Below are positions 1,711 to 37,692 of a DNA stretch of 64,000 nucleotides, piece after piece (the first letter of the stretch is position 1; every line of letters begins with the position of its first letter). Under the pieces are notes generated by a model that did not search any database, was not told where the DNA came from, and saw nothing but the letters and a program-made list of their open reading frames with translations. Position numbers and translations under genes: made by a program. Origin of the DNA: a virus; the IMG/VR virus record IMGVR_UViG_3300017963_000206; one strand, 5' to 3'.

Positions 1711-1976
1711 TATATCTTGAGTGCCAAGAGTAATGCTTTCTCACCTAATTGCTTAAGTACCTTGACCGCTTCGTTCCGTTTCCGGAGCGCGTCTTCATCC
1801 CGCTTCATTGCGAGATAATCCTTATCAAGAGGGTCTAGGTTCTCGTCAATCTCATCACTGGACTCGGATGTAACGAAGCTCTTGAAGTAATCCGCAAGAG
1901 CCTCCCTCTGTCGTTTTGACAGGTTTTTCCGGAGGGTATTTGCTAGGGTTTTCACCTCATCGAGTTTTTCGCTCAT
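1710..1976 (-). CDS. Hypothetical helical protein
   Basis: 88-aa ORF with RBS (GAGGTGA), abutting the next gene. Confidence 0.65.
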   Translation of the reverse strand: MSEKLDEVKTLANTLRKNLSKRQREALADYFKSFVTSESSDEIDENLDPLDKDYLAMKRDEDALRKRNEAVKVLKQLGEKALLLALKI

Positions 1977-2008
1977 ACATCACCTCATAATGGCCTGTTC
2001 TGGACGAT

Positions 2009-2479
2009 TTAAGGGGTCTCAGAGACGTTTTCTCCGGGTTTTGGTGTTTCCGGTTGCTCTTCTGGTTTCAATGCGTCTGAGAGGCCGTTAAACGCTTTTA
2101 GCGTTTTGGACGCTTGCTTCAAATTTCGGGTAATTTTAGGTATATCCTTCAAGAGCTTATCGAGATATTCCCCGGCCTTCGTACAATTTTTCACAATCTT
2201 CTCGAAGTCCGATTTAGTTGATTCTAGCCCTTTCTTTTTAATAGGGTCTTCCTCTTTGGCAATCTGCTCATCGAGTGTCTTAATTTGTGCCTGACTCTCC
2301 TGCATGGTTGCCGCGAGTAGAGGTCTCACGACCTGTTCGATTTCCTTCAGTTGGGTTTCCCCGGACTCCGCTTTGGTCGCAAGATTATCAATGCCTGTGA
2401 TTACACTTCCGGGAACTTTGCATCCCGTCAGTCCGAATAAGAGTAACGCCGAAATCAATGCGATAAAAAGATTTTTCAT
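2009..2479 (-). CDS. Lipoprotein with coiled coil (possible spanin component)
   Basis: Signal peptide plus lipobox LTGC; heptad-rich body. Confidence 0.65.
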   Translation of the reverse strand: MKNLFIALISALLLFGLTGCKVPGSVITGIDNLATKAESGETQLKEIEQVVRPLLAATMQESQAQIKTLDEQIAKEEDPIKKKGLESTKSDFEKIVKNCTKAGEYLDKLLKDIPKITRNLKQASKTLKAFNGLSDALKPEEQPETPKPGENVSETP

Positions 2480-2552
2480 GTTACGCTCCTTCCGAAAATA
2501 GGGTCTCGTTAGAAATATTTTGTGACTCGTCCTTCAGAACGGTCTCGTGATT

Positions 2553-3035
2553 TTACAACGCGCACTTCACGAGAGTAACAAGCGCACGAACATCCAAAGG
2601 TGATGCGAAGAAAAACAGGCTTTTGTTTTTTACACGAAGAAGATTCTCCGTGTTCTCCGCTTCCTCTTTAGAGAATAACACGCATGAGCGCGTATGTCCG
2701 TTCATCGTTGGCTCGTACTCTTGGAAGCTGCGAAAATCGAGAACCAATGGAGATGATTCACCAATTTTCATAAGCATGTCCTGAACCGCGCCGGGATTTT
2801 CGACCTCCGTAACATCAAATTCATTTTCAACGAAGTAACTGGCTATCTGTTTCCTGAAAGCTTCGTCTTCGATGAAGAGAATCACGGGTCGTTTCGGAAG
2901 ACAAAATCGCTTACCCGTTTTTTCCTTCTTCTCGATTTCATCTGAAATCAAGCTTTGGGTTAAATCGAGTTCGCGCATTGCCTGTTCCGCTTTTTCCTTC
3001 AGTTCCGGATTAGGATGTTTTTCTTTCGGTAGCAT
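2553..3035 (-). CDS. Stand-alone response-regulator receiver (REC/CheY-like) domain, atypical
   Basis: VILFIEDE (acidic pocket), LVLDF (phospho-Asp position), VLFS (Ser/Thr), FASPLD where K-P-x-D is expected. Confidence 0.6.
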   Translation of the reverse strand: MLPKEKHPNPELKEKAEQAMRELDLTQSLISDEIEKKEKTGKRFCLPKRPVILFIEDEAFRKQIASYFVENEFDVTEVENPGAVQDMLMKIGESSPLVLDFRSFQEYEPTMNGHTRSCVLFSKEEAENTENLLRVKNKSLFFFASPLDVRALVTLVKCAL

Positions 3036-3036
3036 T

Positions 3037-3330
3037 TTAATTCTCCCTGTCTCTGAGATAGGGTAATACTTTGCCGAGTGCTTCCTGAGATTTCAGAGCA
3101 ATGTCGATATTTTTCTGGTAGAGTTCGCGGTTCTCTTTTTCCAGTTCCTTTTTCTCATCCACCAGACGGTCTATTGCTGTTTGATATCTCACTTCCTGTT
3201 CCTTCAGAGCTTCGGTGTGTTTATCCTCCCTTTTTTGAAAATATTTCCACAACTGATTAAGTATAATCAGAGTGACAATAAGGAAACCAACGGAAGGCCC
3301 GAAAGTTTTGAAGATTGTAACAAAATCCAT
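3037..3330 (-). CDS. Holin-like protein (single TM plus coiled coil, BhlA/UviB style)
   Basis: One N-terminal TM helix, charged coiled-coil C-terminus, located after the tail genes. Confidence 0.6.
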   Translation of the reverse strand: MDFVTIFKTFGPSVGFLIVTLIILNQLWKYFQKREDKHTEALKEQEVRYQTAIDRLVDEKKELEKENRELYQKNIDIALKSQEALGKVLPYLRDREN

Positions 3331-23535: not shown

Positions 23536-24474
23536 CTACTCGCCTTCCTGTCCTGTAAGTCCTGCGAGATTGGACAGGCAAGCTCCGAGACGGTCGTGAG
23601 GAGAGACAAATTCTTCTTTGTCAGTCTTCTCTTCCGTTGAAATAACCGGAACTGTTCCACCCTTGCGGCCTTTCGGCTTCGACAAGGTTAACTTTTCGCG
23701 TTCAAGACGCTTTTTGACTTCCTCTTCGATTTCCTTCTCTTTCTCTTTCGAGAGTTTCGCTTCCTGCTTTTCGAGACCTTTGATGTACTCCGGGTCCGGA
23801 CCCGCGCACGGAATCGTGAGCAGTTGACCTTCGATGCCGTTTACAACGGTAGCAAGGTCTTCCGGTTTGAGTGTCTCTGCTTCGAGAAGCGGTTTGAGAA
23901 CTTCGAGAAGGTCTTCAGTGAAGCGTTGGAGACCCTTCTGGTCGAGCTTGTCGAACTCGAAGGAACGGGGAGCGATTGGCACAACCGCGAGAGCTTTGCC
24001 GCGAGAAAATGCGGGGTAGAAAGTTTCGTCTTTTCCTTTCTTACCTTTCGCCATATCCTCTTCGTCTTCCTTTTCCTTTTTCTTTTCCGGGTCTTCCTCT
24101 TCCTCTTCATCCTGAAGTTTGTCGTCCCCGTCTTTGCACTTCGCATCTTCCTGCTCTTTCAAACAGGCGGGGCATGAGGAGTCAAGCTCTTTGTGGTCCC
24201 CGTTGAGGTGCGCGGTCATAAGCGCGTGTTCCTCTTCGAGTTTCTTCTGCTTTTCTTCCTCTTCGAGTTTGGCCTTCTCTTCTTCGGCCTCTTTCTGTTC
24301 GAGCATCATCTTTTTAAGAGATGCAATTTCGTTGCGGATTACACCCGCGTCTTCGGAGGACATTTCTTCGTCTTCTTTCCCTTTCCCTTTGGCGGCCTCC
24401 TTCGCCTCAAGGATTTTGTCGAGCTTTTCGTTAAGCTCTTTGTACTTCTCGCCAAGCTGTTCGAGCGTGAACAT
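23536..24474 (-). CDS. Nested in-frame scaffold protein (Mu gpZ-like internal start)
   Basis: Internal RBS AAAGGAG (24489-24483) 8 nt before in-frame ATG 24474 (MFTLEQL...). Confidence 0.55.
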   Translation of the reverse strand: MFTLEQLGEKYKELNEKLDKILEAKEAAKGKGKEDEEMSSEDAGVIRNEIASLKKMMLEQKEAEEEKAKLEEEEKQKKLEEEHALMTAHLNGDHKELDSSCPACLKEQEDAKCKDGDDKLQDEEEEEDPEKKKEKEDEEDMAKGKKGKDETFYPAFSRGKALAVVPIAPRSFEFDKLDQKGLQRFTEDLLEVLKPLLEAETLKPEDLATVVNGIEGQLLTIPCAGPDPEYIKGLEKQEAKLSKEKEKEIEEEVKKRLEREKLTLSKPKGRKGGTVPVISTEEKTDKEEFVSPHDRLGACLSNLAGLTGQEGE

Positions 24475-25092
24475 AGTAGTAACTCCTTTCCGATTAAGTT
24501 CTACGATTTCGAGTTCACCTTTCGTATCTGTTTTAAAGAATAAATCCCTGACCAGTTCAGCCCCGTCTCTCTCATCATAAACCTCATGGTCTTCTTCGCC
24601 GTAAGATAGAAACAATTCTTCCCCACCAGCAGGGTTGATTACGATGCCTGATGTGCGATAGAGGATATCGCGGCATACATCCCCATCACGTCTGACTTCC
24701 AGACGTGGAGACATTCCGTATGAAGAGTATCCGTCTCTTTGTTTTTGGTAGGCAATGTCTTCACTGGTTTTCTGGTCAACTATTTCCATCCAACGAGCTT
24801 TGAGAGCTTCTTCACGCTCGTCCCAATAAGGCTCACGAATCCTTCCGACCCAAGTTCCGGAACTGTCTTCGTGGTCTTTTGACGCTCCAACAAAAACCGA
24901 AAGAGCGTTGTACTCTTCCGGTGTTTTTGGTCCATGCTTGAAAATGCGGATGAGATAGGCTGCGACAGGTTTTACTTCTTCCCGGACATAGCGATTTCCG
25001 TTCCAACGTCCAACCTTTAACAAGGTGACATCCGGAATTCTGACTCTAGGTTCTACGCGCATTCGCTTGTCAAGGATTTGAATGTCTCTCAT
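23536..25092 (-). CDS. Head maturation protease-scaffold fusion (Mu gpI-like)
   Basis: DHE, YGMSPRL and IVINPA motifs in the N-terminal domain; acidic coiled-coil C-terminal half. Confidence 0.75.
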   Translation of the reverse strand: MRDIQILDKRMRVEPRVRIPDVTLLKVGRWNGNRYVREEVKPVAAYLIRIFKHGPKTPEEYNALSVFVGASKDHEDSSGTWVGRIREPYWDEREEALKARWMEIVDQKTSEDIAYQKQRDGYSSYGMSPRLEVRRDGDVCRDILYRTSGIVINPAGGEELFLSYGEEDHEVYDERDGAELVRDLFFKTDTKGELEIVELNRKGVTTMFTLEQLGEKYKELNEKLDKILEAKEAAKGKGKEDEEMSSEDAGVIRNEIASLKKMMLEQKEAEEEKAKLEEEEKQKKLEEEHALMTAHLNGDHKELDSSCPACLKEQEDAKCKDGDDKLQDEEEEEDPEKKKEKEDEEDMAKGKKGKDETFYPAFSRGKALAVVPIAPRSFEFDKLDQKGLQRFTEDLLEVLKPLLEAETLKPEDLATVVNGIEGQLLTIPCAGPDPEYIKGLEKQEAKLSKEKEKEIEEEVKKRLEREKLTLSKPKGRKGGTVPVISTEEKTDKEEFVSPHDRLGACLSNLAGLTGQEGE

Positions 25093-25221: not shown

Positions 25222-25249
25222 ATTATACAGGTACGAAAAAACCTGTCAA
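25222..25249 (-). promoter_or_regulatory. Sigma70 consensus promoter of the capsid operon with internal palindrome
   Basis: TTGACA-16-TATAAT; ACAGGT-N8-ACCTGT inverted repeat spans the spacer. Confidence 0.7.
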
Positions 25250-25279: not shown

Positions 25280-28200
25280 TTAGAAACTACTTACTGTCGA
25301 TTCTGCTTTTTTTGGCAATTTTCCCTTCTGGAACCTCCAATTGGGGGTATTAGCGTCTTCCCGCACAAAAATGAAGTCCCCTTTTAATTTCTTGCCATTG
25401 AAGCGATAATGGAGGGATTCTGACGTTTCCGAGATTATATCCACATCCCCTGCATCGAGAACCTCCACGTTGAGAGGAAGTTCCTTGTTTGGATTAAGCG
25501 GGTGACTCGGTGGAAGTTCACCTTCCCAATCCATCCAATCCACGGGTGAATGTTTGTCGGGAGGAGAATTTTTCGTCACTTCATTTTGTACGTTGTAAGC
25601 CTGACCTCTCTTAATCCAGAAAGGTGAATCCTTACCCAAATTCCATGTAGTGACTTCATTCCCCTCACGGACTCTTATAATGAAATCTTCCTGTCGAAGT
25701 TTACGGACCACATCTGGACCCTTCGACCAGAGATAGTGAACAGTGAATTCTGCATCTTTAGCGAGACCTACGACATTATCTTTGTTCTCCGCTTCTTTCA
25801 AAACACCTTTGTCCCGGAGAAGAAGACGAGCTTGCTCCATCCGCTTAAAGATTTCATCTTTATTATCCGGCGCATCCGGACCCCACCACTTCAATTCAGT
25901 TGGAATCAAAGCTTCAAAATCCGGAGATAATCCGGAGACATCTTTAGGTGGAATGTAATCTTTTTTCTTTCTCGCTCCCGAAGTCATAAGGTACGGTGTC
26001 TGGTCCTTCGCCATCCATGCTTCCCAATGCGGAGAATCGCCGGAGATATACCTGAGAACCAAACGTCCCTTGAATTTTTTTCCGTACAAAAAGAATTCTT
26101 GGAACCACGGCTTATGCAAATTGAATCTGCCTTTGTCCGTGACTCCCGGATACAGGATGCCCCAATCAACTCCCCAAAATACACCGGGGAATTCCTTCGT
26201 TGCGCCCGGACCTCCCGGCGGTATAACTTTCCGGACCATCTTTAACCATTCAGGAGGTTGTTTCTCTTTCATCTCAACACGCACATGCTTATTGGGGTCC
26301 ATGTCGGGATGGAATTTCCAAAGTTTGCGATTATCAAGGTCCGAGAATTTCGCGGCCTCTTTCAATGTCAGCACGGGTTTCTTTATCGTGTCCGGAACTT
26401 CGGAGAGAACCGTGAACCCATTAAGGTATTCTTTCCCCGGCTGCATGATTCTCAGGTCGAGATGTGAAGATTTTCCACGGAAATGATTCTCAATCACAAA
26501 GAAGTATTCAGGGAAACTCGATGGACTTCTCTTGGCAACTTCTTTCCGTGTAATATTTCTCCACTTATTAATTTCGTTCCTCACTGTCTGAGGAATTACG
26601 AGTTTGGATTCCTGAAGTTCCACGGCTGTCCGTTCTTCGGGAAGAAAATTCTCGATTTTAGAACCAACTTGGTCTTCTATGAAGACACCCTTGATGAAAC
26701 CTTCATTATCCTTCGGAAGATGAATCAGATTCTTCGTTTCTATTTTAACGAATTCTCTGATTGGATAAATATAAAGGTCGTTGCTTCCGGGCCACCATTT
26801 TTCTTTCTCATCGTCCGTAATATTATGGATATCCCGGAGTGCCTCAAACTCTTCCTTCGTTATTTTCGCAAATGTCTCACCTTCCTTGACCTTCCCCTGC
26901 AATTGCTTCGGGGTATTAAGCCGAGTAAAGCCAAAGCGGAGCCAACCATAAACTTTTCCGTCTGAACCAGTAAGTAGTATGAAAGTGGGTACATCAAATG
27001 GCCTTGACTTTACTACGGCCTTCTTTTCACCTTTCATAATCCTCTCTGCTTGCGAGTCTGGTAACACCATACCCCTGTCGATTTCCTCTGAGAGAATTCT
27101 TTGCAGGAATTCGAGTGAATTCCGGGAGAGATTTTCCGGACGAAATGTTACTTTCTCCCTCCGGACTAACTCACGGAATATTTTTTTACCTACACTTAGG
27201 ACGGTAGAGGCATCATATTTAAATTGTTTGCCCTGCCGAACCGTAGAAAACCACGCATTCACGATTTTCCAATCATCGGATAGTACATCATCCGCTACTT
27301 CAGACGGGTCGTACTTCTCAATGCTTTTAACTAGGTCTTGCTGCGTAAAAGTCTCAAGGTTATTCTCTCCCGCCTTCAATTTTTGCTTTGAAAGCGTATC
27401 GAAGGACTCCGCTTTCTTCAGAGCGGAAGCGAATGTGTCAATCACATCGGACTTATTCTCGAATTGAAGTTTACGGAGCGTGATTTTTGAAAAATCATTC
27501 GGGAATCTCACGAAATCGAGAGTCCTGTAGCTTAATTCGATAATATCACCTTTATTTAATTTTATAACTGAAGCGAATCTTCCTACATTAGCGTAGTTTC
27601 TTCCCTCAACGGTAACAAGTGCGGAAGGTGTCGGTTTAAATTCACCGAATTCCAAAGCGCAATCGTATAAATAAACACCATCGGTCTTAGTTTCCTGAGA
27701 ATTAACGACAATGGCACTAACTTTCCCATTAGAGACATCTTCAGTCTCGTCTTTTTCCGCTTTTTGGATATCCTTTTTCTCTGCATCACTCATCGTTATG
27801 ATTTCCCCGGCATCTTCGGGAACCCAACCGCGAGTGAAAAGTGGCTTGGCTCCCTCCGGAGCTTCGGTTACTTCCTCAAAACGATGCTTAACCTCATTAA
27901 GTTGCCACGATAAACGGAATTTAAGTGCTTTAATATCCGTGTTTTCATCGGAGAGCAGATGCAGGACGTAAGTATCCTTATCTACTGAGTAAAAAACGCA
28001 AGGCTTACTCTCGTAAAACTCCGGAAGTTTTTCCACGACATCCGAGAGATAGCAAAATCTGTCTTCATCTTCGTACCAATATTGTGAAAGCTCCTCCGGA
28101 ACCGCTTTCTTATTTACTTCACGGAAGTAACCCATCGACACGAGAGGCTTGTATGACGTGAATGGTCCTATCGGGTCCGGGAAAATGTGTACCGGGACTC

Positions 28201-30868
28201 CCATGTGCTTTAAATATGTCTGCACGTTATCGCTGAAGGTTTCGTTATACCGTGTATCACGAGTTAAAATATCCACATCTCTCCCGAAACCGTTCACAAC
28301 GATAGAACCCACGATGTAAGCATAAGGACGCATCGTTAAAAAGTCCTGCATTTCCTTTTCTATATCAAAGTCCGATGCGTTCTTCTGATTTTTAGATAGA
28401 CGGTCAATGTCCGTAGAGATACGGTGTTCGAGTCCACGTCCCCGGATTTCATTCGCAACAAATTGGTGTGCGTTCACGAGAGGCTCAATCGTCTTGCCTT
28501 CTTTTTTCCATTGGTAATAAAGTGCATGGAGTCTTGCGTGAATCATCATCAGTTCGGTTACATCAAGACTGTGCAACCAATCCGGGTCTATTTTTTCTAT
28601 CGGGATGTTGCTCACACCGAAGAGCCATGTATCATCCGTGGACAATTCAGCCAACCCGGAACGAAGCTCTACTTTGGGGATGTTAAGGAAAATATCTTCC
28701 CGGTATTTATGATTATTATACATGAGCGCATTAAGGTCTGCTCTCCACCGAACATCTTTCAAAGCCGTTCCGACTTTCCATCTCCGTGTGTCTTTGAAAG
28801 GGAGTTCCATGCTCGATACAATTATTTCCGGGTACGAATCTTTCCCCTTCCGTGTCAAAGTATAAAGGTGACGACCATTCGCAAGGAATTTTCTCGTGAG
28901 AAGTTTTTTATAACGGTCAGTCGGATTAGTGGTCCAGAAGAAATCACCTTCGACATGCGCGAGTAAGTTGAAGAACTTCTCAAGATTTTCCGCATTCTGA
29001 AATTCTTCCGTCTTGAATGCCTTTGAAAAATTAAGTTTTGTCGGCGGGTCAAGATAAAAGAATGTTCTCGGACTGTCGTACTCTTTCATTACATCCAAAC
29101 CATCCTCTTGAGTGATGGTCGGATTAATTGCTTTCATTGCTTCACGGAACCTGTTTATTTTTTTGTCCGAAAGAAGATTATGGATACGTTCTTCCCTGTC
29201 GGCAGAGAAAGAGTCTCTCAATCCCTGCCACGAATATATCGTTGTGTATATAAGTTTGTAAACTTTTTCGAGCATCGTTGTCGCTGCGGTGTTCTTCAGC
29301 CTCTTGAAAGTTTCCTTCTTCGGTCTCCAATCGAAACCGCGAAGCTTTTCAAGTTGCTCATCCGTTCCATCACGGAGGAAACGTAACCACGCTACAACGA
29401 GAGGGTCAGTGTCATTCAACACTACCGTCTTACCTTTAAGTTTTTCGATGTTGTGGAAGAATAATGTAGCCCCGCCAGCGAAAGGCTCAACATATTTATC
29501 ATATTTACTGAAGTCTTCAAACTGACTGAGAACATCGAGCATGAATCCCCGGCCTCCTCCGATTGGAAGCGGTCTCTTCATAAGAACTTCTTCGGAGACT
29601 TCCATTTTTGCCAATTGGATATGTTCCATACTGGAAGGCCACTTCAATTCTTCCGAAGTGGATAGCACGATGTAATCACTTAATCTTTCTGCATTGAAGT
29701 TGCGGAGAAAAGAACTCGCCTTCACAACTTTACATCTCTTCAGAAAAGCCAGTATAAGAGGAAAATCTTCCGTGGCGAAATCGAATTCCTTTGCGAGACG
29801 ATTCACTTCTTCGGTGTTGGTGAGGCAATCCGGGTAAGACAATACCATCGGCTTAATCTGTTTGAACATTCCATCACTTAAGGCCGCGATATTTTTTCCG
29901 GCCTTCGTGTAGATATATGGAAGATACCGTAGTTTCGGTTCGTAAAGAACCATGTTATCACGACCTGAAGAAAGCAATTGCGTTGACACCGCTCTCGCTT
30001 CTTCGAGTAAATTTTTTGAAAGTCTTTGTGGATGCGGGATAAAAAATTCTCCGGGCTTCTCCGGGTCAACGGGTTTCGGCATTTTCTGTTTCACGACTTC
30101 GCCGTTCATCCGTTCCCAAAGAACATTATTCCCTTCAACCTGAACTGTCTTCCCGTCCCATGTTGGAATCGCAAGGGTTCTCGGAGCAATCCTCTTGGAA
30201 GATTCATTAAGCCAATCAAGTAAATCTTCCGGACTCATTTTGATAGCGTCTTTGCCGAAATGATGAATAAGCATCACAGGAATTTTAAATGAGTTACACC
30301 AGCGGAGTTGTTTCTGAAGTGAACCGTGTCCGTGCATCTCACCGGAATCTTCGTCTCTCCTGCGAGTATCCTGTTCGAGTTGGTCGCCATCCGCGATAAA
30401 AACGTCCGTATCAAAAAGAATATCAAGCTCCGGTATTTCGAGAACATCGAAAGGTACAACAACTTTTTTGTTGTCGATGTAGAGCGCAAGTCCTGTCACT
30501 GGTGCGTAAGTCGCATGTTTGACAGGGAAGCATTCCACCTCCCAATCCAAGAGTTCGATTTTTCCGTCACGGGGAACGATGCGGATATCCGATGCCTTCA
30601 AACTTTTTGGTAAAAGTTCTTTCGTTGCTTCGGAACAGTAAATCGGAATATCAACCGTGCGGTCCTGCAAGCCTCCGATGTCGTCTATATGACCGTGTGA
30701 GAGATAGATTGCATCCACTTCAGGAAGAGGGGCATCTTTCCAAGTCAGCCCGAAATTAAAAAGGACCGCTTGTTTCTTCCACTCGATTATCATAGCGGAG
30801 AACTGTTTGTGAAGTTCCGAGCTTTGAGGAACGAGTCCACGAGTTCCTAAAAATTGTATCGTAAACAT
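25280..30868 (-). CDS. 1862-aa polyvalent protein: MBL hydrolase - Dam-like MTase - helical - nucleotidyltransferase - OB - helical - ASCH/PUA-like - LigD phosphoesterase-like
   Basis: LSHGHIDD; YVEPFAGGA / LNDTD / YLDPPT; IVGSIV...RDVDIL; RGMVLPDSQAERIMKGEKKAVVKSR; HFRGKSSHLDLRI; LNGKKLKGDF-type C-terminus. Confidence 0.7.
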   Translation of the reverse strand: MFTIQFLGTRGLVPQSSELHKQFSAMIIEWKKQAVLFNFGLTWKDAPLPEVDAIYLSHGHIDDIGGLQDRTVDIPIYCSEATKELLPKSLKASDIRIVPRDGKIELLDWEVECFPVKHATYAPVTGLALYIDNKKVVVPFDVLEIPELDILFDTDVFIADGDQLEQDTRRRDEDSGEMHGHGSLQKQLRWCNSFKIPVMLIHHFGKDAIKMSPEDLLDWLNESSKRIAPRTLAIPTWDGKTVQVEGNNVLWERMNGEVVKQKMPKPVDPEKPGEFFIPHPQRLSKNLLEEARAVSTQLLSSGRDNMVLYEPKLRYLPYIYTKAGKNIAALSDGMFKQIKPMVLSYPDCLTNTEEVNRLAKEFDFATEDFPLILAFLKRCKVVKASSFLRNFNAERLSDYIVLSTSEELKWPSSMEHIQLAKMEVSEEVLMKRPLPIGGGRGFMLDVLSQFEDFSKYDKYVEPFAGGATLFFHNIEKLKGKTVVLNDTDPLVVAWLRFLRDGTDEQLEKLRGFDWRPKKETFKRLKNTAATTMLEKVYKLIYTTIYSWQGLRDSFSADREERIHNLLSDKKINRFREAMKAINPTITQEDGLDVMKEYDSPRTFFYLDPPTKLNFSKAFKTEEFQNAENLEKFFNLLAHVEGDFFWTTNPTDRYKKLLTRKFLANGRHLYTLTRKGKDSYPEIIVSSMELPFKDTRRWKVGTALKDVRWRADLNALMYNNHKYREDIFLNIPKVELRSGLAELSTDDTWLFGVSNIPIEKIDPDWLHSLDVTELMMIHARLHALYYQWKKEGKTIEPLVNAHQFVANEIRGRGLEHRISTDIDRLSKNQKNASDFDIEKEMQDFLTMRPYAYIVGSIVVNGFGRDVDILTRDTRYNETFSDNVQTYLKHMGVPVHIFPDPIGPFTSYKPLVSMGYFREVNKKAVPEELSQYWYEDEDRFCYLSDVVEKLPEFYESKPCVFYSVDKDTYVLHLLSDENTDIKALKFRLSWQLNEVKHRFEEVTEAPEGAKPLFTRGWVPEDAGEIITMSDAEKKDIQKAEKDETEDVSNGKVSAIVVNSQETKTDGVYLYDCALEFGEFKPTPSALVTVEGRNYANVGRFASVIKLNKGDIIELSYRTLDFVRFPNDFSKITLRKLQFENKSDVIDTFASALKKAESFDTLSKQKLKAGENNLETFTQQDLVKSIEKYDPSEVADDVLSDDWKIVNAWFSTVRQGKQFKYDASTVLSVGKKIFRELVRREKVTFRPENLSRNSLEFLQRILSEEIDRGMVLPDSQAERIMKGEKKAVVKSRPFDVPTFILLTGSDGKVYGWLRFGFTRLNTPKQLQGKVKEGETFAKITKEEFEALRDIHNITDDEKEKWWPGSNDLYIYPIREFVKIETKNLIHLPKDNEGFIKGVFIEDQVGSKIENFLPEERTAVELQESKLVIPQTVRNEINKWRNITRKEVAKRSPSSFPEYFFVIENHFRGKSSHLDLRIMQPGKEYLNGFTVLSEVPDTIKKPVLTLKEAAKFSDLDNRKLWKFHPDMDPNKHVRVEMKEKQPPEWLKMVRKVIPPGGPGATKEFPGVFWGVDWGILYPGVTDKGRFNLHKPWFQEFFLYGKKFKGRLVLRYISGDSPHWEAWMAKDQTPYLMTSGARKKKDYIPPKDVSGLSPDFEALIPTELKWWGPDAPDNKDEIFKRMEQARLLLRDKGVLKEAENKDNVVGLAKDAEFTVHYLWSKGPDVVRKLRQEDFIIRVREGNEVTTWNLGKDSPFWIKRGQAYNVQNEVTKNSPPDKHSPVDWMDWEGELPPSHPLNPNKELPLNVEVLDAGDVDIISETSESLHYRFNGKKLKGDFIFVREDANTPNWRFQKGKLPKKAESTVSSF

Positions 30869-30877
30869 GGTTTTCCC

Positions 30878-32467
30878 CTAGACGCAAATGGTCGTAGGAC
30901 CAGAGGTGAAACCTCTGTCCGTGAGTTTCATCAGTTTTCCTATATCGAAGTTAGCGAACATATAATAAAGCGCACGTTCCGCTTTTTCTTTTTTCTTTTT
31001 CTTTCCGAAGAACGGAGGTCTCTTGACTCCGAGAAACTTAACAAGGTGGTTATCTTTGAAAAGTTTCATTATAGTCGCATGTGCGTTATGTAAAAAGACC
31101 CACTTCCCTTTAACCGATTGCAACAGTTTTGCAAACTTCGGGAAGTCAATATTCTTCGCATCCGTTTTGTAACCAAACCCGAAAGTCACATCAAGATATG
31201 GAGGGTCGCAGAAAAATAAAGCATCCGGGTCGTCTTTAAACTCCTCCACTATTTTCATGCAATCCTGATTCGAGAAAGTTATCCTCTGCAATTTCGCATT
31301 GGATACTATCGCTTGCTCAATAAGTCTCTCAGCACGGACCTTTTTACCAAAGCCGTGTTCGGCATCGTCTTTCGGGACTCCGGTATTGAATTTTGAAAAA
31401 TATCGTTTATCCACTGAGGCAGGGGATTTACCGAGAATGTCTCCGCAACGGGCGAGATAGAAATAGCGGTAAAGTTTTTCGATTGGCTCAGTGGGTTTGG
31501 ATGCTCGGAGTTTTTTCCAGACATCTTTGTTTCTCCTCCACTCCTTTTTCCGCAGAGTCAAAATCTCTTTTATAGAAATATCCTTGAGAAGCTTAAACAG
31601 CATGAGAACTTCACTGTCTATATCATTCATAATGTTTTCATCGACAGGCTTTTTCTCAAGGCTAAAATCTCCCGGTCCGGAGAATACCTCAACGAAACGA
31701 TTGTGAGGAACCATGTCCAACATTCGCGCCAATTGAGGTAAGATGAAATAGAAAGACCCGTAAACAACTACTGGCGAGTTCTTCAATCGGACATCAAAGC
31801 CCATGCGTTCACGCTCTAAAAAATTCGCCGTTGCTACGGACTCACCATAATCATAAGGATTGTCTAGCTGCAATACCTCCCGGACCGGATACATATATAC
31901 ATACTGCACTCCACCGTCTTTAAGTTTCTCTACCTCTTCATCCGAAAGACCGTGGAACTTGGAGTATTTTTCTAATTCTCCGATTTCAACACGCATATAA
32001 ACATCATCGAATTTGTAATCCTTAAGTTCTTTATCAGGGAGTACATTATCTTCGGTGAAACCGAAGCGAATAAAACCCATTTCCGAATCAGTCGTGACCG
32101 CCTTAAAAAATCCAGTGAACGGAGTGGGACTGACCAGCACGAGATATTTTATCTCTTTATTAAGAAGCTGCCGCATTCTCAAATCTGTGAGAAGGAGGGA
32201 CTCATCAGCAATCCCTCCGAGTTGCCACGGGAGAAGCGCGTCATTTTTGTAGGTCATGGTCTCGAAGGTTTGTTTTTTTCTACGCACTATTTCCGAAAGC
32301 ACGACTCTACCCTGCTCGGAAACTTCCGTCCATTCTTCACCTTCACTGACACCCGCTTTCATAAGCTTATCCCAACGCTCTGAAAGCTCACTCCACATTC
32401 CGGAGAGTTCGGCATCAGTGTAATCAACTACAGTTTTTTCAAATTGCGTTTGCAGATTAATCAGCAT
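30878..32467 (-). CDS. ASCH-like plus Dam-family (D12 class) DNA adenine methyltransferase
   Basis: FVEVFSGPG, MNDID and FFCDPPY motifs; N-half resembles the helical+ASCH segment of the neighbouring giant protein. Confidence 0.8.
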   Translation of the reverse strand: MLINLQTQFEKTVVDYTDAELSGMWSELSERWDKLMKAGVSEGEEWTEVSEQGRVVLSEIVRRKKQTFETMTYKNDALLPWQLGGIADESLLLTDLRMRQLLNKEIKYLVLVSPTPFTGFFKAVTTDSEMGFIRFGFTEDNVLPDKELKDYKFDDVYMRVEIGELEKYSKFHGLSDEEVEKLKDGGVQYVYMYPVREVLQLDNPYDYGESVATANFLERERMGFDVRLKNSPVVVYGSFYFILPQLARMLDMVPHNRFVEVFSGPGDFSLEKKPVDENIMNDIDSEVLMLFKLLKDISIKEILTLRKKEWRRNKDVWKKLRASKPTEPIEKLYRYFYLARCGDILGKSPASVDKRYFSKFNTGVPKDDAEHGFGKKVRAERLIEQAIVSNAKLQRITFSNQDCMKIVEEFKDDPDALFFCDPPYLDVTFGFGYKTDAKNIDFPKFAKLLQSVKGKWVFLHNAHATIMKLFKDNHLVKFLGVKRPPFFGKKKKKEKAERALYYMFANFDIGKLMKLTDRGFTSGPTTICV

Positions 32468-32471
32468 GGCT

Positions 32472-35300
32472 TTACTCCATCATCGGACTTGCAAGCCGGG
32501 AAACCAAATCGTATATATCAGGCGACTCTTGAGAAAGAAGAGTCGGTGACTCGAAGAAAAGCCTGAAGCTTTTCGCAAATTCACTCGCGGTCATTCTTCC
32601 TATCATGTTGTACTTCGCTCTAAGATGTTCGAGTATCTCATCATCGTATGTTGAAGATAAAATTTCGTCAATACGAACTTCACGGTCCGTGAAATTCAAT
32701 ACATCGTGCATCAACCTCCCAACGAGTTCCGTCCAGACAGCACCCCAATCTTTCGACCTGTAACGCGAAAGTTGGAAGTATCTCGCATCCGGTAAATATT
32801 TCCCTGCCATTTTTCCGGGAAGCGAGTTATGAAATTCGACAAAATTTATAAGCTCGAATACACCTCTCGATACGAGACAATCCGGAAGCTTTTCCAATGC
32901 TTTAGCGAGTTCCGGAATATCGCTTTTTTCCATAAAATCGAAACGTGTGAGATAGTGAAGATTTTTTTCAATATCCCCGATACGTTTCCAGACTTCAGTA
33001 TGTTCTTCCGCGAGTGCCACGCTACCCCAACCTTCATCATCAACGGCATACCCTAGATTCGCGGTCCACATATTTGCCATAGGTTTGAAACCTTCCGGAA
33101 CTTTCTTTAAAGGTGGTGTATCCTTCCCTGCTTTTTTCACGACCACCATCATACAATCAATATTCGGGTGATGTCCTGCGAAGAAATCTAAAATTACTTC
33201 GAGCTTATTCACGCCCAAATTTGCCGCCGCCGCAGAACAGAATGAACAGGGTTTCGCTCCCAACTGAATATAAGCGAAACCGTATTTCATTTTCTTTGCC
33301 GCTCTTGCCATACCCATATAGTAAGAGCGCATGATTTCAGTCCGGGCTATTTGTAGAGCTTTCCAACTCTTACTCTCTTCAAAATATCTTTCGAGCGTAG
33401 TCCGAAGTTTGTCCATTGACCAACCTTCTTTTTCCGCTCTTAACAACGCACGTTTTACTCCGAGTCTTCCTGATTTCGGTTCCCCTGCGAATAGGTCTCG
33501 TTGCAATCTCCGAGCAATTCTGTTCGCACGGGACTTCATCATCTTGAACTCGGACTTCGGAACGAGAGACCACTTTACTTTCTGTCCCAATTTCCGAGCT
33601 AGTTCCCTTTGGCCTTCCATATACCCACGTCTTAACGCGCCGACTGTAGAGACACGGAAGCTGCCACTTGGGAACATATCTATTTGAATTTCAGGGAACT
33701 CGAAATCTATGCCATCATCTAACTTTACATCTTTTGAGAGATTTTCAAACTTCTTCATTACTCCTGATTGTATTTTACTTATTTCCTCCGCTAATTCTTT
33801 AGCGTAGTCAGTCCCAATCTGTTGAACGTCCTTGCTCGTAAAAAAATCAGGAGCTACCTCCCGAAGCTCATCCTCTGTAAACATATCACCTAAGAGTTGC
33901 ATGATGTCTTCGAGAGAACCGCCATCGTCAAGCAAGTCCCGCAAAGCATCTTGAGCTTCGGTATCACCCTCCCCCGGAGGTTGTTGTTGCGCTGGTACAT
34001 CCGGCCTTATTGGTTCGGGAGGGTCTAATGGGTCTATAAAAGTCCCGGTCTTCTGACTATATACACGGATAACATCTCCATCCGGAAGTCTTGCAAGACC
34101 GAGATATTCTCTTGCCTCATTAATCGTGGCATATCCGCGTTTCCCGATAACTTCGAGAAGTCGGGCGAGCCTTCTTTCATCTTTCGTTTCAACGTAGTTG
34201 AGTTTCAGTTCCCAATCCGTGATACCATATTTTGTTGCGAAGAAATGATTTAACCCGTCCTGTAAAGTTACAACTACTGGACGAATGGTATCTTTCGAGA
34301 ACTGAGTATCCGCTTCCGTGGCATCGACATTTTTCTGTTCGAGACCTACTTTTGTCGGAGGAACTCCGAAGGTAGAGAGAACTTCCTGTCGCACCTGTTC
34401 GCGGCCTTTTATAAATTCGATATCTTGCAGTTTTTCTTGCAAGTCTTTAATGTCCACTTCACCTTCGATTATCAGGCAAGGCGAATGCGCTTTGACCGCA
34501 CCTTGATAATGCTGCCGGATTTCATGTCTGTTACGTTCCGCTTCGGTATGGCTTAATCCTTTTTGGAGTTGGAATATCAGAGTTCGTTTCCCGGCGTTTA
34601 CGAAAATATTCTTATTAAACTGTTGCGCGAAAATATCGGTTATTAAGGAAAGCTCTAAAGCTTCCATATCAGAGTGACCACGAATACCGCCTATAGGATT
34701 CGGGTCAATTATGTGAATGACTTCTTCATCTTCAAAAGGAGTCCCGTACATTGCGCCAGTACGATTAAGGTATTGTATGTACTTCGGGTCTTTAAACTCT
34801 CCGGTGAATGGGTCCACGTTAACCAGTACACGGCCTTGCAATGTATAGACGTTTCTCGGATTATTCATTCCATCAGGTTCGACTTCGTAAAAAACTTCGC
34901 CGCAAATTTTAAGACGGGCTAGACCCCAAAAGATTAAGAAGGATTGTGTCTCGTCCGGATTCGGATGATAAATCAAATCCATCAAAACTTTTTTCTGGTC
35001 GGGGTCGGGGTTTGCTTGCGTCTCTTTTACATATCGAGAAGGGACTATCTGGAAGTGTGTACCGAGTACCGCTCGTGCGATTTGGTTAACCGCAGTTTTT
35101 ACCCACGGATGTTTTCGGTAAAGCGCAAGGTACATATCCTGAATGGCGACTTCGACTCTTTGCTGATAATAACCTCCGCGTCCGGAAGTTATTTTTCCGC
35201 GCCGTTCACCTTCAGCAATATTTTTTGCGAGTTCCGCTTTTTGAAGGGTTATGTTTTCGACCATCTCTCTAAGAGTTGGTACGAAGGGGCTACTTATCAT
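32472..35300 (-). CDS. Portal protein - MuF (gp7-like minor head) - degenerate zincin fusion
   Basis: Portal motifs (GEVFYEV, IIHIIDPNP...RGHS, FGVPPTKVG, TINEAREYLGL); MuF (ALQIARTEI...HHPNIDC); C-terminal EFAKSF..FF..P..L....P..YD. ATG at 35300 preferred over the track start 35528. Confidence 0.85.
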   Translation of the reverse strand: MISSPFVPTLREMVENITLQKAELAKNIAEGERRGKITSGRGGYYQQRVEVAIQDMYLALYRKHPWVKTAVNQIARAVLGTHFQIVPSRYVKETQANPDPDQKKVLMDLIYHPNPDETQSFLIFWGLARLKICGEVFYEVEPDGMNNPRNVYTLQGRVLVNVDPFTGEFKDPKYIQYLNRTGAMYGTPFEDEEVIHIIDPNPIGGIRGHSDMEALELSLITDIFAQQFNKNIFVNAGKRTLIFQLQKGLSHTEAERNRHEIRQHYQGAVKAHSPCLIIEGEVDIKDLQEKLQDIEFIKGREQVRQEVLSTFGVPPTKVGLEQKNVDATEADTQFSKDTIRPVVVTLQDGLNHFFATKYGITDWELKLNYVETKDERRLARLLEVIGKRGYATINEAREYLGLARLPDGDVIRVYSQKTGTFIDPLDPPEPIRPDVPAQQQPPGEGDTEAQDALRDLLDDGGSLEDIMQLLGDMFTEDELREVAPDFFTSKDVQQIGTDYAKELAEEISKIQSGVMKKFENLSKDVKLDDGIDFEFPEIQIDMFPSGSFRVSTVGALRRGYMEGQRELARKLGQKVKWSLVPKSEFKMMKSRANRIARRLQRDLFAGEPKSGRLGVKRALLRAEKEGWSMDKLRTTLERYFEESKSWKALQIARTEIMRSYYMGMARAAKKMKYGFAYIQLGAKPCSFCSAAAANLGVNKLEVILDFFAGHHPNIDCMMVVVKKAGKDTPPLKKVPEGFKPMANMWTANLGYAVDDEGWGSVALAEEHTEVWKRIGDIEKNLHYLTRFDFMEKSDIPELAKALEKLPDCLVSRGVFELINFVEFHNSLPGKMAGKYLPDARYFQLSRYRSKDWGAVWTELVGRLMHDVLNFTDREVRIDEILSSTYDDEILEHLRAKYNMIGRMTASEFAKSFRLFFESPTLLSQESPDIYDLVSRLASPMME

Positions 35301-37692
35301 TGGTGATTGCGGTGATTGCAACCCCTGTGGTGGTATCCCTTGCGACACCGGGAGTATTTCCACGTTTGGACTTTTTCTTCGCTTTCTTTTTCGCGGCCTT
35401 TTTGGAGGAGCTTTTTTTGAAGCTTTCGTTGTGTTTTTCGTCTTCAAAGACTTCGTGGGGGTTCGGGTCGTAGTCCGGGATTTCTTCTTCCCCGTCCGAG
35501 TCCCTGTTTGCGTCTTCTTCTTCCGCATGGTTTTGAGACTCCATCAACTCTGATAGAAATTTTGCGTTATGAGGTGAGGGTTTTGATACCTCCAATATTT
35601 TTTTGACTCCGAAGGATTTTTCGAGATTTATGAAAACTTCCTTCGCTGATGGAGATAATACCATGTCGGCAACGAACATTCCACGATTTTTTTGAATAAA
35701 ATACGAAAAAATCTGCTCAACATCATCGACCTTGATTAGCTCCATTACGATATCTTCGGACTCTTTTTGGTCCACATCCGGACCTATGGTGGAGATTCTT
35801 ACTTGGGGTTCGTAAAATTCCTTTGCACGAATCTTGGCAATAAAATCAAACATCCACGCATCATTGAAGTGGTCCTCTCCCACGTTCACCCAACGTGCAT
35901 CTTTTTCTTCCTCTTCATCCCCGGCACGTCTCCGCATATTTTTAATATGCTTTTTAAGTTCCCGTGTACGCGGATGGTCCGGACAAATCCATTCGAGACG
36001 TTTAACTTCCTCAGAGAGCTTATCCATCATCTGCGTTTTATTTGTAACGACTTTATGTTCTTTTTCGTCCCATTGGACATCATCAAACATTTTATCATTA
36101 TGAAAGTGTACGAAGACACGACCTTTATGTTTCTTAGCAAATTTTTTCGCGGAGTTTAAATTCGGAGAACCGTCAATAACGGCTATCACAATATTAAACT
36201 GCCGCATAAGTAAATCGAGAGTTGAATCAAATGATTCTTCCGTATCAACTTTCTCTACCCATACGGTTTGCCTACGAGCTTTAGCATCCCACGAAGAAAT
36301 ATGGATGTGATGCCATTTGGAAGATTGGTCAACGCCCATCGTGCAAGGTCTATCATCACGCAGATGTAATTTATATGCGGCATTCGTACATGCTTCCAAA
36401 GCGAGAGGTGCTATACGATTGCCTGTTGACTCAAATGTTAATCCGAGAACGAAATTGTACCAATCGGCCTCACGCTTATAATCATCTTTTTTCGCCATTA
36501 TAGAGGAGGGTGTCTCATTAAGACGCATCGGATTCGTAATATGAAAGCTTTCTTTTTCTCCAATGAGTTCGGGCCTCTCTGCAATCCATCTTCCTGCCGC
36601 TCTATCAAGTTCCCCTCCGCATTTTTCACAAGCCCAAATATCATTCTCGTGGTCCATGTGTTCGAGAGGTTCACAACAAAGCTTTACCCAATTATCACAA
36701 TCCGTGCAGGGGACGTGGAAATGAAATTGGCATCCGTCTTGGAATTTTTCGTCAATACCTTCGCCCGGAAAAGTAGGAGTGGAAATCCAATTGACCCATT
36801 GAAATTCTGAAGCTCCTAGACGCGAAGCAAATTTACTCATCGTGACAGCATCGGAGAAATTAACTTCATCATGGATATTCATATCAGAAGGAGTCGAAGT
36901 ATGCCGTGCTTTACCTTTAGTACCGCGTATGAATATTAAGGAATTTGCAACTTCTTTCATAGAGACATTATCGGTCCACTTCTTCCTTTTTTCTTTTTCG
37001 TGTCCGAATAATTTACGGTTCTCCCAAAGAATAGAATCAATGCGGTCCTTAGAAAAGTCTTTTGCATCCGTGGCGGTTGGAAGAGTGAGCATGACCCTAC
37101 GCCGTGCGGTCATTCCATATTTACGGATGAACCATATTATTTTCATTAACTCATATTCAGATATACCAACTTGCGCGGATTTAATTGCTGCGAAGTATGG
37201 GGAAACCGACTCATAAATCCGCTTCATATAGTGCTTCTCAAACCAGCGAAGCTCAAACGGTTTACCGTCCTTCATTACATCATCTACGGACTTCAGAGGG
37301 GAGCCTAAATACTCTCCCTTTTTAAGGACAGGGCTTTTCTGTTTCATGTTTGCGGGGGAGTGGAAAGTACAGTAATCTTTCCCTTTTAATGCAATCGCTT
37401 TGCAGGGAGAGCCATCTGGTTTTTTATATATACATATTCTACTTTTATCAACTTGCTCTTGCGGATTTTTAGGGTTGCGTCTCTTCGCATCCGGTTTCTT
37501 CTTTTTTCTCTTTTTAATTTTCTCTTTTTTGGTTTTATTCAATCTCTGCATCGGATGGTGTCCCCGGCAGAATGAAGGTTGCTTCATTCCAGATTTTGCC
37601 TTTGGGACAAGTTTACCACATCCGCACAGACATTTTTTTCTAACTTGTTTCTTTTGTGAAGACTTCGCCATCGTTTCTTGCTTGCGCTCCAT
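35290..37692 (-). CDS. terL: Terminase large subunit (lambda gpA-like) with N-terminal Zn-finger extension
   Basis: KSAQVG Walker A, IHDEV Walker B, STPT coupling motif, Zn ribbon, RNase H-like GVDQ...DHF; N-terminal CLCGCG and C-x8-C-x10-C-x2-H. Confidence 0.9.
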   Translation of the reverse strand: MERKQETMAKSSQKKQVRKKCLCGCGKLVPKAKSGMKQPSFCRGHHPMQRLNKTKKEKIKKRKKKKPDAKRRNPKNPQEQVDKSRICIYKKPDGSPCKAIALKGKDYCTFHSPANMKQKSPVLKKGEYLGSPLKSVDDVMKDGKPFELRWFEKHYMKRIYESVSPYFAAIKSAQVGISEYELMKIIWFIRKYGMTARRRVMLTLPTATDAKDFSKDRIDSILWENRKLFGHEKEKRKKWTDNVSMKEVANSLIFIRGTKGKARHTSTPSDMNIHDEVNFSDAVTMSKFASRLGASEFQWVNWISTPTFPGEGIDEKFQDGCQFHFHVPCTDCDNWVKLCCEPLEHMDHENDIWACEKCGGELDRAAGRWIAERPELIGEKESFHITNPMRLNETPSSIMAKKDDYKREADWYNFVLGLTFESTGNRIAPLALEACTNAAYKLHLRDDRPCTMGVDQSSKWHHIHISSWDAKARRQTVWVEKVDTEESFDSTLDLLMRQFNIVIAVIDGSPNLNSAKKFAKKHKGRVFVHFHNDKMFDDVQWDEKEHKVVTNKTQMMDKLSEEVKRLEWICPDHPRTRELKKHIKNMRRRAGDEEEEKDARWVNVGEDHFNDAWMFDFIAKIRAKEFYEPQVRISTIGPDVDQKESEDIVMELIKVDDVEQIFSYFIQKNRGMFVADMVLSPSAKEVFINLEKSFGVKKILEVSKPSPHNAKFLSELMESQNHAEEEDANRDSDGEEEIPDYDPNPHEVFEDEKHNESFKKSSSKKAAKKKAKKKSKRGNTPGVARDTTTGVAITAITNDK

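Follow-up and report, generated by a model that had tools for sequence, protein, structure and literature searches.

We analysed a 64,000-nucleotide (nt) stretch of viral DNA (IMG/VR record IMGVR_UViG_3300017963_000206; hereafter the window), a single strand-biased part of a large tailed-phage genome that covers about half of that genome. On its minus strand two adjacent genes encode proteins of 529 and 1862 amino acids (aa), here called gene 1 and gene 2, in the order terL, portal, gene 1, gene 2, a 187-nt gap, a 518-aa gene and the major capsid protein gene. An initial annotation, made from the sequence alone, had described the two open reading frames (ORFs) behind a portal-MuF gene, and we find them exactly as claimed (Table 1). 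Gene 1 starts 4 nt past the portal stop codon, as read from the junction sequence, and 9 nt separate its own stop from the start of gene 2; translation of both genes is coupled to that of the portal gene. Independent contigs from JGI and Logan (80-124 kb) carry identical gene calls for the pair, and the 1862-aa protein is letter-for-letter identical on seven metagenomic contigs (50-200 kb; longest 123.7 kb).

The 1862-aa protein has nine recognisable domains. Direct Pfam searches of the two proteins detect only a metallo-beta-lactamase (MBL) fold and two D12-class methylases, and direct Pfam and PDB sequence searches with residues 690-1862, whole and as single segments, returned nothing; the remaining domains needed profiles built from relatives. 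With these profiles and two AlphaFold models, the domain list of the initial annotation is borne out almost domain for domain, including its phosphoesterase (PE), ASCH, oligonucleotide/oligosaccharide-binding (OB), methylase and MBL assignments.

Table 1 Genes, predicted domains and neighbouring features, in positions of the window (NTase, nucleotidyltransferase; MNT, minimal nucleotidyltransferase)
Feature	Residues	Position	Strand	Remark
Gene 1		30878-32467	minus	529-aa ORF
Gene 1, helical N-part and ASCH-like domain	1-240	31748-32467	minus	
Gene 1, D12-class (Dam-like) adenine methylase	241-529	30881-31747	minus	
Gene 2 (P0001)		25280-30868	minus	1862-aa ORF
Gene 2, MBL-fold hydrolase	1-260	30089-30868	minus	
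Gene 2, linker	261-430	29579-30088	minus	
Gene 2, second D12-class methylase	431-700	28769-29578	minus	
Gene 2, conserved helical domain preceding NTase	701-840	28349-28768	minus	
Gene 2, minimal MNT-type NTase	841-925	28094-28348	minus	pol-beta superfamily
Gene 2, probable degenerate NTase duplicate	926-1045	27734-28093	minus	
Gene 2, OB domain	1046-1175	27344-27733	minus	ATP-dependent DNA ligase type
Gene 2, helical part and second ASCH-like domain	1176-1440	26549-27343	minus	
Gene 2, PE1	1441-1660	25889-26548	minus	LigD-3'-phosphoesterase-like, with insertions
Gene 2, PE2	1661-1862	25283-25888	minus	second PE fold
Sigma-70 consensus promoter		25222-25249	minus	TTGACA-16-TATAAT; 12/12 hexamer matches; in 187-nt gap after gene 2
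518-aa protein		23536-25092	minus	N-terminal ~215 residues prohead-protease-like, then acidic coiled-coil (scaffold-like)
Portal gene		32472-35300	minus	942 aa; MuF-like stretch and further C-terminal domain

The C-terminal part of gene 2 is a tandem of PE folds of the kind found in LigD. A profile of 55 PE-tandem sequences (alignment A2) matches the archaeal LigD-PE structures 3p43 (7e-11) and 3p4h (7e-8) and, more weakly, 5dmp, 3n9b and 2lj6. An AlphaFold model of the tandem has a mean predicted local distance difference test (pLDDT) score of 90.8, and its top seven Foldseek matches are all LigD PE domains (E 1.4e-6 to 6.5e-5). It shares the PE beta-barrel with LigD and stand-alone archaeal PE proteins (3n9b, 3p43, 3p4h and 5dmp; VIA Z 13-16.7); 3p43 superposes on PE2 (model 270-416) with a root-mean-square deviation of 2.2 Å over 122/124 residues. 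Residue-level alignments place the N-terminal and middle PE motifs in PE1, which is related to PE2 by hhalign profile comparison (2.1e-4). The PE1 metal site, H1462, H1469, D1471 and R1473, corresponds to His42, His48, Asp50 and Arg52 in Pseudomonas aeruginosa LigD numbering and is kept in 51-53 of the 55 family sequences, a degree of conservation that points to selection for catalysis. PE2 has no metal ligands and its consensus no His/His/Asp motif, and we predict it to be a catalytically dead copy. The degenerate PE-like C-terminus noted at the outset is a PE fold (VIA Z 16.7 for PE2) that lacks the metal site. By fold and by metal site, gene 2 belongs to the LigD PE superfamily, with two catalytic residues of LigD replaced.

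Upstream of the tandem lies a minimal nucleotidyltransferase (NTase) of the pol-beta superfamily. It carries the motif GS..G..DVD and, further downstream, an acidic residue ahead of GPFT; the residues G, G, D, D and T do not vary among 27 sequences (alignment A5). Atlas leads name NTP_transf_2/Polbeta, and the fold matches the minimal nucleotidyltransferase (MNT) antitoxins 8xeo, 1no5, 8xeh, 7bxo and 6m6w modestly (VIA Z 4.7-5.3); the family profile found no PDB relative by sequence, so the MNT type is assigned from this fold match only. The helical domain before the NTase has phmmer matches in 35 family proteins (also A5) and is modelled as helices of high pLDDT (model mf3dde603ab9b). It always stands N-terminal to the NTase in the family and has a conserved RGxEHR motif; the pairing recalls HEPN-MNT pairs, and no fold or profile match was obtained for it. 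Profile comparison gave no support for reading residues 680-775 as what is left of an ASCH C-terminus (hhalign E 0.44).

Between the NTase and the PE tandem, the remains of a DNA ligase can be recognised. Residues 1046-1175 match the family ligase profile at 2.3e-15, over model positions 259-365 only, and resemble the OB domains of Lig3, Lig1, archaeal and T4 ligases (VIA Z 7.3-8.7). No ligase adenylation domain (KxDG) was found in the six frames of the 64-kb window with a profile made from relatives, nor any Pfam DNA_ligase_A_M match, confirming the earlier description of an OB fold with no adenylation domain; the 1862-aa protein therefore cannot seal. Residues 926-1045 sit where relatives have the adenylation domain. 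They show no match to the family ligase profile, lack GS and DxD, and match the NTase profile weakly (hhalign E 1.1e-3, probability 21%). The second AlphaFold model (pLDDT 75) shows high confidence over the helical, NTase and OB domains but drops below 50 at 929-1024. The degenerate NTase copy proposed initially thus keeps a faint profile likeness and gains nothing from the model, and we regard it as likely but not secure.

The N-terminal half of the cassette is built from methylases, an MBL hydrolase and ASCH-like domains. The gene 1 methylase (Pfam MethyltransfD12 6.8e-15, residues 242-475; PHROG DNA methyltransferase 7e-23) keeps the canonical motif IV DPPY and the S-adenosylmethionine (SAM) motif I in a motif alignment. 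Motif I is also intact in the gene 2 methylase (MethyltransfD12 4.9e-12, residues 449-651). Residues 37-204 of gene 2 match Pfam Lactamase_B_2 (5.2e-12), with the downstream His/Asp/His ligands of the MBL metal site present; matches beyond the fold, all weak, are to SNM1A, RNase J, RNase Z and CPSF. The 170-residue linker that follows hits only itself among 151 family proteins and has no Pfam, PDB or fold match. Gene 1 residues 1-240 are paralogous to gene 2 residues 1176-1440 (BLASTP to 1190-1377, 1.4e-12). These ASCH regions have no direct Pfam ASCH match in either protein, but an ASCH family profile (A4) matches the structure of TTHA0113 (2dp9/1wk2), which we take to be an ASCH-superfamily protein, at 9e-5 over 111 residues. 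For the second ASCH domain, 76 of the 100 named Atlas matches carry ASCH (best score 0.95, 198 shared features).

We next place gene 2 in its family. When 1.84 billion representatives were scanned in full with HMMER, using residues 690-1862, the search retrieved 988 at E<=1e-3 (about 1000 clusters at 50% identity, from metagenomes) and 118 at <=1e-30. Nearly all matches cover the last ~400 residues, and the module is usually C-terminal in proteins of 400-2100 aa. Its signature, the motifs HxRGKSxHxDxR and KAxQPxxW, is present in gene 2, which matches relatives with phmmer E values down to 7e-185 and is 29-42% identical to 54 of them over ~400 residues. A Pfam scan of 86 relatives found an ATP-dependent ligase (DNA_ligase_A_M) in 59, a D12 methylase in 11 and an MBL domain in 11. 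Six are fused to an XkdF-type prohead protease (Peptidase_S78_2), one carries Peptidase_S78, one Mu-like_Pro and two Phage_Mu_F, these two among 46 relatives scanned, and individual relatives add UDG, Pyr_excise (pyrimidine-dimer glycosylase), GNAT, 2H phosphoesterase, RNA ligase or Tad3. Inteins or LAGLIDADG domains interrupt 5 of the 40 relatives of the first set. The family core is a minimal NTase, an ATP-dependent DNA ligase with OB and a C-terminal tandem of LigD-type PE folds, to which DNA methylases, an MBL hydrolase and ASCH are frequent additions. Pfam and PHROGs have no model for the PE-tandem family, and we found no described phage LigD-like, packaged ligase or PE protein in the searchable literature. 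With three different queries against 50,697 GenBank phage records, the PE tandem was found in just one, that of ANMV-1. A narrow-alignment contig scan added six loci with the module in metagenome-assembled genomes, in both archaeal and bacterial bins, which do not settle the host range.

The same inventory bears on what kind of end the enzymes might act on. ASCH could bind RNA, the PE could trim 2',3'-cyclic phosphates or 3'-phosphates and the NTase could extend the product, for example to mend tRNAs that host anticodon nucleases have cut. Links to RNA metabolism are established for the ASCH superfamily, as is the resection of 3'-ribonucleotides by LigD PE; two relatives carry a 2H phosphoesterase, two carry RNA_ligase domains, and RNase Z and RNase J are among the weak MBL matches. 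Yet the ligase of the family belongs to the DNA-ligase type and its OB domain does too, the cassette holds two DNA adenine methylases, and the UDG and pyrimidine-dimer glycosylase of relatives are DNA repair add-ons. A 5'-kinase, needed for classical RNA healing, did not turn up when the two proteins and a further 49 ORFs of the window were searched with Pfam. We consider a role on RNA ends improbable.

The initial annotation had further suggested that the cassette may degrade or synthesise nucleotide signals; in such a scheme the MBL would degrade, or the NTase make, cyclic or oligonucleotide immune messengers to counter CBASS or type III CRISPR. MBL-fold and NTase-fold enzymes acting on nucleotide immune signals exist, and one relative carries Tad3, an inhibitor of Thoeris, as a fusion. 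The NTase of gene 2, however, resembles MNT antitoxins and not CD-NTases, and every MBL match beyond the fold, weak as all are, is to a nucleic-acid-processing enzyme. The suggestion finds no support in these comparisons, and we rate it as remote.

How gene 2 departs from the family became clear from 144 PE-bearing representatives. An adenylation domain lies between NTase and OB in 93 of them, and gene 2 is the only full-length representative with an internal OB but no adenylation domain. The remaining OB-only representatives begin at the OB and are probably truncated; the closest relative, P0010, ends a 2.7-kb contig. In P0007, P0041 and P0044 the NTase is joined straight to the PE; these are ligase-free too, so ligase-free forms arose more than once. 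Two fuller architectures recur: MBL-methylase-ASCH-helical-NTase-(ligase)-PE-PE in P0013, P0016 and P0026, and ASCH-helical-methylase-MBL-NTase-(ligase)-PE-PE in P0023 and P0024. Genes 1 and 2 read like a split, partly duplicated version of the P0013/P0023-type architectures. On this comparison the window appears to hold a rearranged, ligase-less family member that has lost the catalytic domain, gained extra copies and been split into two genes. The earlier view that the exact combination is undescribed therefore stands for the ligase loss, the extra copies and the two-gene split, but not for the wider set, since MBL-methylase-ASCH-NTase-ligase-OB-PE-PE proteins recur in metagenomes.

Losses of this kind raise the possibility of a decaying passenger, a protein left with little or no enzymatic role once the ligase was gone and a PE tandem that is merely structural or capsid-binding. 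The missing adenylation domain, the degenerate NTase copy, the DPPT and HxHxDD motifs of the gene 2 methylase and MBL, and the dead PE2 would all fit. Decay is harder to square with a 7.2-kb open frame that is identical on seven contigs from different samples, or with an intact NTase GS/DxD, PE1 metal site, DPPY methylase and most MBL ligands. We judge it very improbable.

The position of the gene recurs as well. A family gene follows immediately on the portal gene in ANMV-1 and on the metagenomic contigs of P0008 and P0009; on the P0007 contig it comes a few genes after portal/MuF. A search for the same architecture thus places the module beside or near the portal gene in four other viruses, while the full-length ligase-less form with an orphan OB is found only here among the 144. 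The ANMV-1 protein AJP62006 (KP703175, 'ATP-dependent DNA ligase') is 27% identical to gene 2 residues 1448-1841 and has the same order, NTase-(ligase)-OB-PE-PE. It differs in its intact adenylation domain (Pfam 5.9e-17) and its lack of MBL, methylase and ASCH domains, and ANMV-1 is an uncultured virus with an archaeal host. The portion of KP703175 at 1913-3193, annotated 'MutT-like phage hydrolase', matches Pfam Phage_portal_3 (3.2e-22), and the ANMV-1 portal gene appears to be misnamed in the record.

Bacterial LigD joins POL, PE and LIG domains and works with Ku. The PE superfamily is characterised by Mn2+-dependent activity at 3' ends, as a 3'-phosphatase and in the resection of 3'-ribonucleosides. 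Gene 2 shares with it the His-His-Asp triad and Arg in PE1, and most family members likewise join PE to an ATP-dependent ligase and a nucleotide-adding domain. The differences are several. The PE is doubled here, with one active-looking and one dead copy; the family has Gln or Glu for His84, Trp for Tyr88 and an extra invariant Lys (K1534, where 5dmp has Thr); the NTase is of MNT type in place of an archaeo-eukaryotic primase (AEP); and gene 2 lacks a ligase catalytic domain and lies with gene 1 in the head module of a virus. Neither an AEP primase-type polymerase nor Ku has a Pfam match in the two proteins or the 49 other window ORFs. The gene 2 product is not a LigD, there being no ligase domain, AEP polymerase or Ku in the window. 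By analogy it would work most like the LigD PE domain, set in the frame of a polyvalent phage protein.

The surroundings of the cassette are those of a head operon. TerL is of the gpA type (PHROG 2e-86) and a distant relative of SPO1-group phages at 25-26% identity. The portal gene matches Pfam Phage_portal (1.7e-40), PHROG portal (5e-50) and NCBIfam portal_HK97 (4e-34), and its residues 556-746 form the MuF-like stretch (PHROG head morphogenesis 2.5e-5). The ORF list extends the portal to 35528 (1018 aa); at 35290-35528 it shares 239 nt with the 3' end of terL, and there both frames are rich in lysine and arginine. On sister contigs gene callers put the portal start close to 35300 (942 aa) or a little further upstream (958 aa); given these later starts, translation probably skips the first 60-76 codons of the 1018-aa ORF. 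On the other flank, the initial annotation named a head protease. The 518-aa protein resembles S77/S78/S80 prohead proteases in the Atlas only (score 0.91-0.95, template-modelling score 0.52-0.60) and has no match in Pfam, PHROG or NCBIfam, so that the assignment survives as a plausible prohead protease-scaffold. A Pfam census of the 49 other window ORFs identified, within 38000-64000 on the minus strand, a third DNA methylase (N6_N4_Mtase 1.3e-49), ribonucleotide reductase, thymidylate synthase, MazG, a DprA-like protein, a staphylococcal-type nuclease, a radical SAM enzyme and a DUF3850 domain.

The gap after gene 2 contains a full-consensus promoter and no terminator-like site that we could find. 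Judged from its sequence, this promoter would drive the protease/scaffold and capsid genes and mark the end of a terL-portal-cassette unit, which makes the cassette the last part of that unit. Having their own promoter argues that the abundant head proteins are expressed separately and more strongly, and the sigma-70 consensus argues for a bacterial host.

Predicted cotranscription with terminase and portal invites a simple reading of the cassette as a set of late enzymes that stay outside the capsid, methylating concatemeric DNA and cleaning nicks and 3' ends at the packaging site so that terminase does not stall. Gene 2 has no capsid-targeting domain of its own, and the UDG and Pyr_excise add-ons of relatives suit quality control before packaging equally well. 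What speaks against it is that in about one of every nine relatives the module is fused to a prohead protease or MuF domain, which points to the inside of the procapsid, and that Tad3, an anti-defence domain carried by one relative, fits early action in a new host. We regard this reading, the main rival to packaging, as unlikely.

Phage proteins known to enter the cell with the DNA include the P1 Dar proteins, T4 IPI and the N4 RNA polymerase. Among them P1 DarB is a methyltransferase-helicase, packaged in the head as shown by experiment, that protects injected DNA from type I restriction. From what is established about it, DarB is like the cassette in being a very large head-associated protein with a methylase, thought to act in cis on incoming DNA. 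It differs in having a helicase and no PE, NTase or OB domain and in that its packaging is demonstrated, where ours is inferred; no sequence relationship to the cassette proteins was seen.

A closer frame is that of the polyvalent proteins of phages and conjugative elements (Iyer, Burroughs, Anand, de Souza and Aravind 2017; PMC5512222), which likewise combine many unrelated enzymatic domains in one polypeptide, are linked to portal/MuF genes and include DNA methylases. The role proposed there, delivery with the DNA to counter host defences, is the one proposed here. That paper makes no mention of LigD, ASCH or MBL, and its three uses of 'ligase' are RNA ligases or lie in the reference list. 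Gene 2 fits the polyvalent-protein definition, having several unrelated conflict-related domains and lying next to a portal-MuF gene, while its repair-type core sets the family apart from the proteins described in PMC5512222 as a separate, recurrent architecture.

Taken together, a head-packaged and injected cassette for end processing and methylation, encoded by a ligase-less member of the family, is the best explanation of the locus and one we hold to be somewhat probable. Both proteins would be made in low copy together with terminase and portal and would be taken up into the procapsid through contact with the portal-MuF or the protease-scaffold protein; the module is probably inside the procapsid because relatives fuse it to a prohead protease or MuF. 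They would then leave the head with the DNA and enter the cell. There the intact Dam-like DPPY methylase could methylate adenines of the incoming DNA against restriction, while the OB, ASCH and PE tandem might hold DNA ends or nicks. PE1, using Mn2+ or a similar metal, could clean blocked 3' ends and the NTase could add or transfer a nucleotide, with a ligase from another locus, or that of the host, doing the sealing. Two functional claims of the initial annotation can be placed accordingly. Virion delivery is favoured by gene context, namely the portal coupling, the protease/MuF fusions and the synteny, with packaging and injection inferred. Healing of nicked ends is plausible for PE1, with its intact metal site, but two LigD catalytic residues are replaced and no ligase accompanies it.

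Several observations weigh against this explanation. In PE1, Q1537 occupies the position of LigD His84 (Q in 35, E in 14 and H in 2 of the 55 family sequences) and W1541 that of Tyr88 (W in 53/55), so the chemistry of PE1 may differ from that of LigD. Some domains may be weakened: motif IV of the gene 2 methylase is DPPT where 12 of 14 domains of relatives have DPPY or DPPW, and MBL motif 2 is HxHxDD against HxHxDH in an alignment with 13 relatives. The 1862-aa protein itself has neither a protease nor a MuF domain. Finally, the 64-kb window, about half of the genome, contains no ligase or Ku gene.

Beyond this one locus, the PE-tandem family as a whole may be a capsid-borne, virus-made and Ku-independent counterpart of LigD, loaded through portal, protease or MuF and entering with the genome, a proposal that we advance tentatively and with less than even confidence. 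We found no description of a packaged DNA end-repair set in the searchable literature. The family is large, with about 1000 clusters, yet absent from the cultured phages among 50,697 GenBank records. If the module is delivered with the genome, it would add a further, new level to the ways in which phages counter restriction, CRISPR cuts or nucleases that degrade ends, and compact enzymes for end healing could be drawn from it. The ligase-less form in the window would offer a natural dissection of what the PE tandem, OB and NTase do alone. If the kit has indeed been kept despite loss of the ligase, its core job would be binding, cleaning, tagging or shielding DNA ends, together with methylation, and not sealing.

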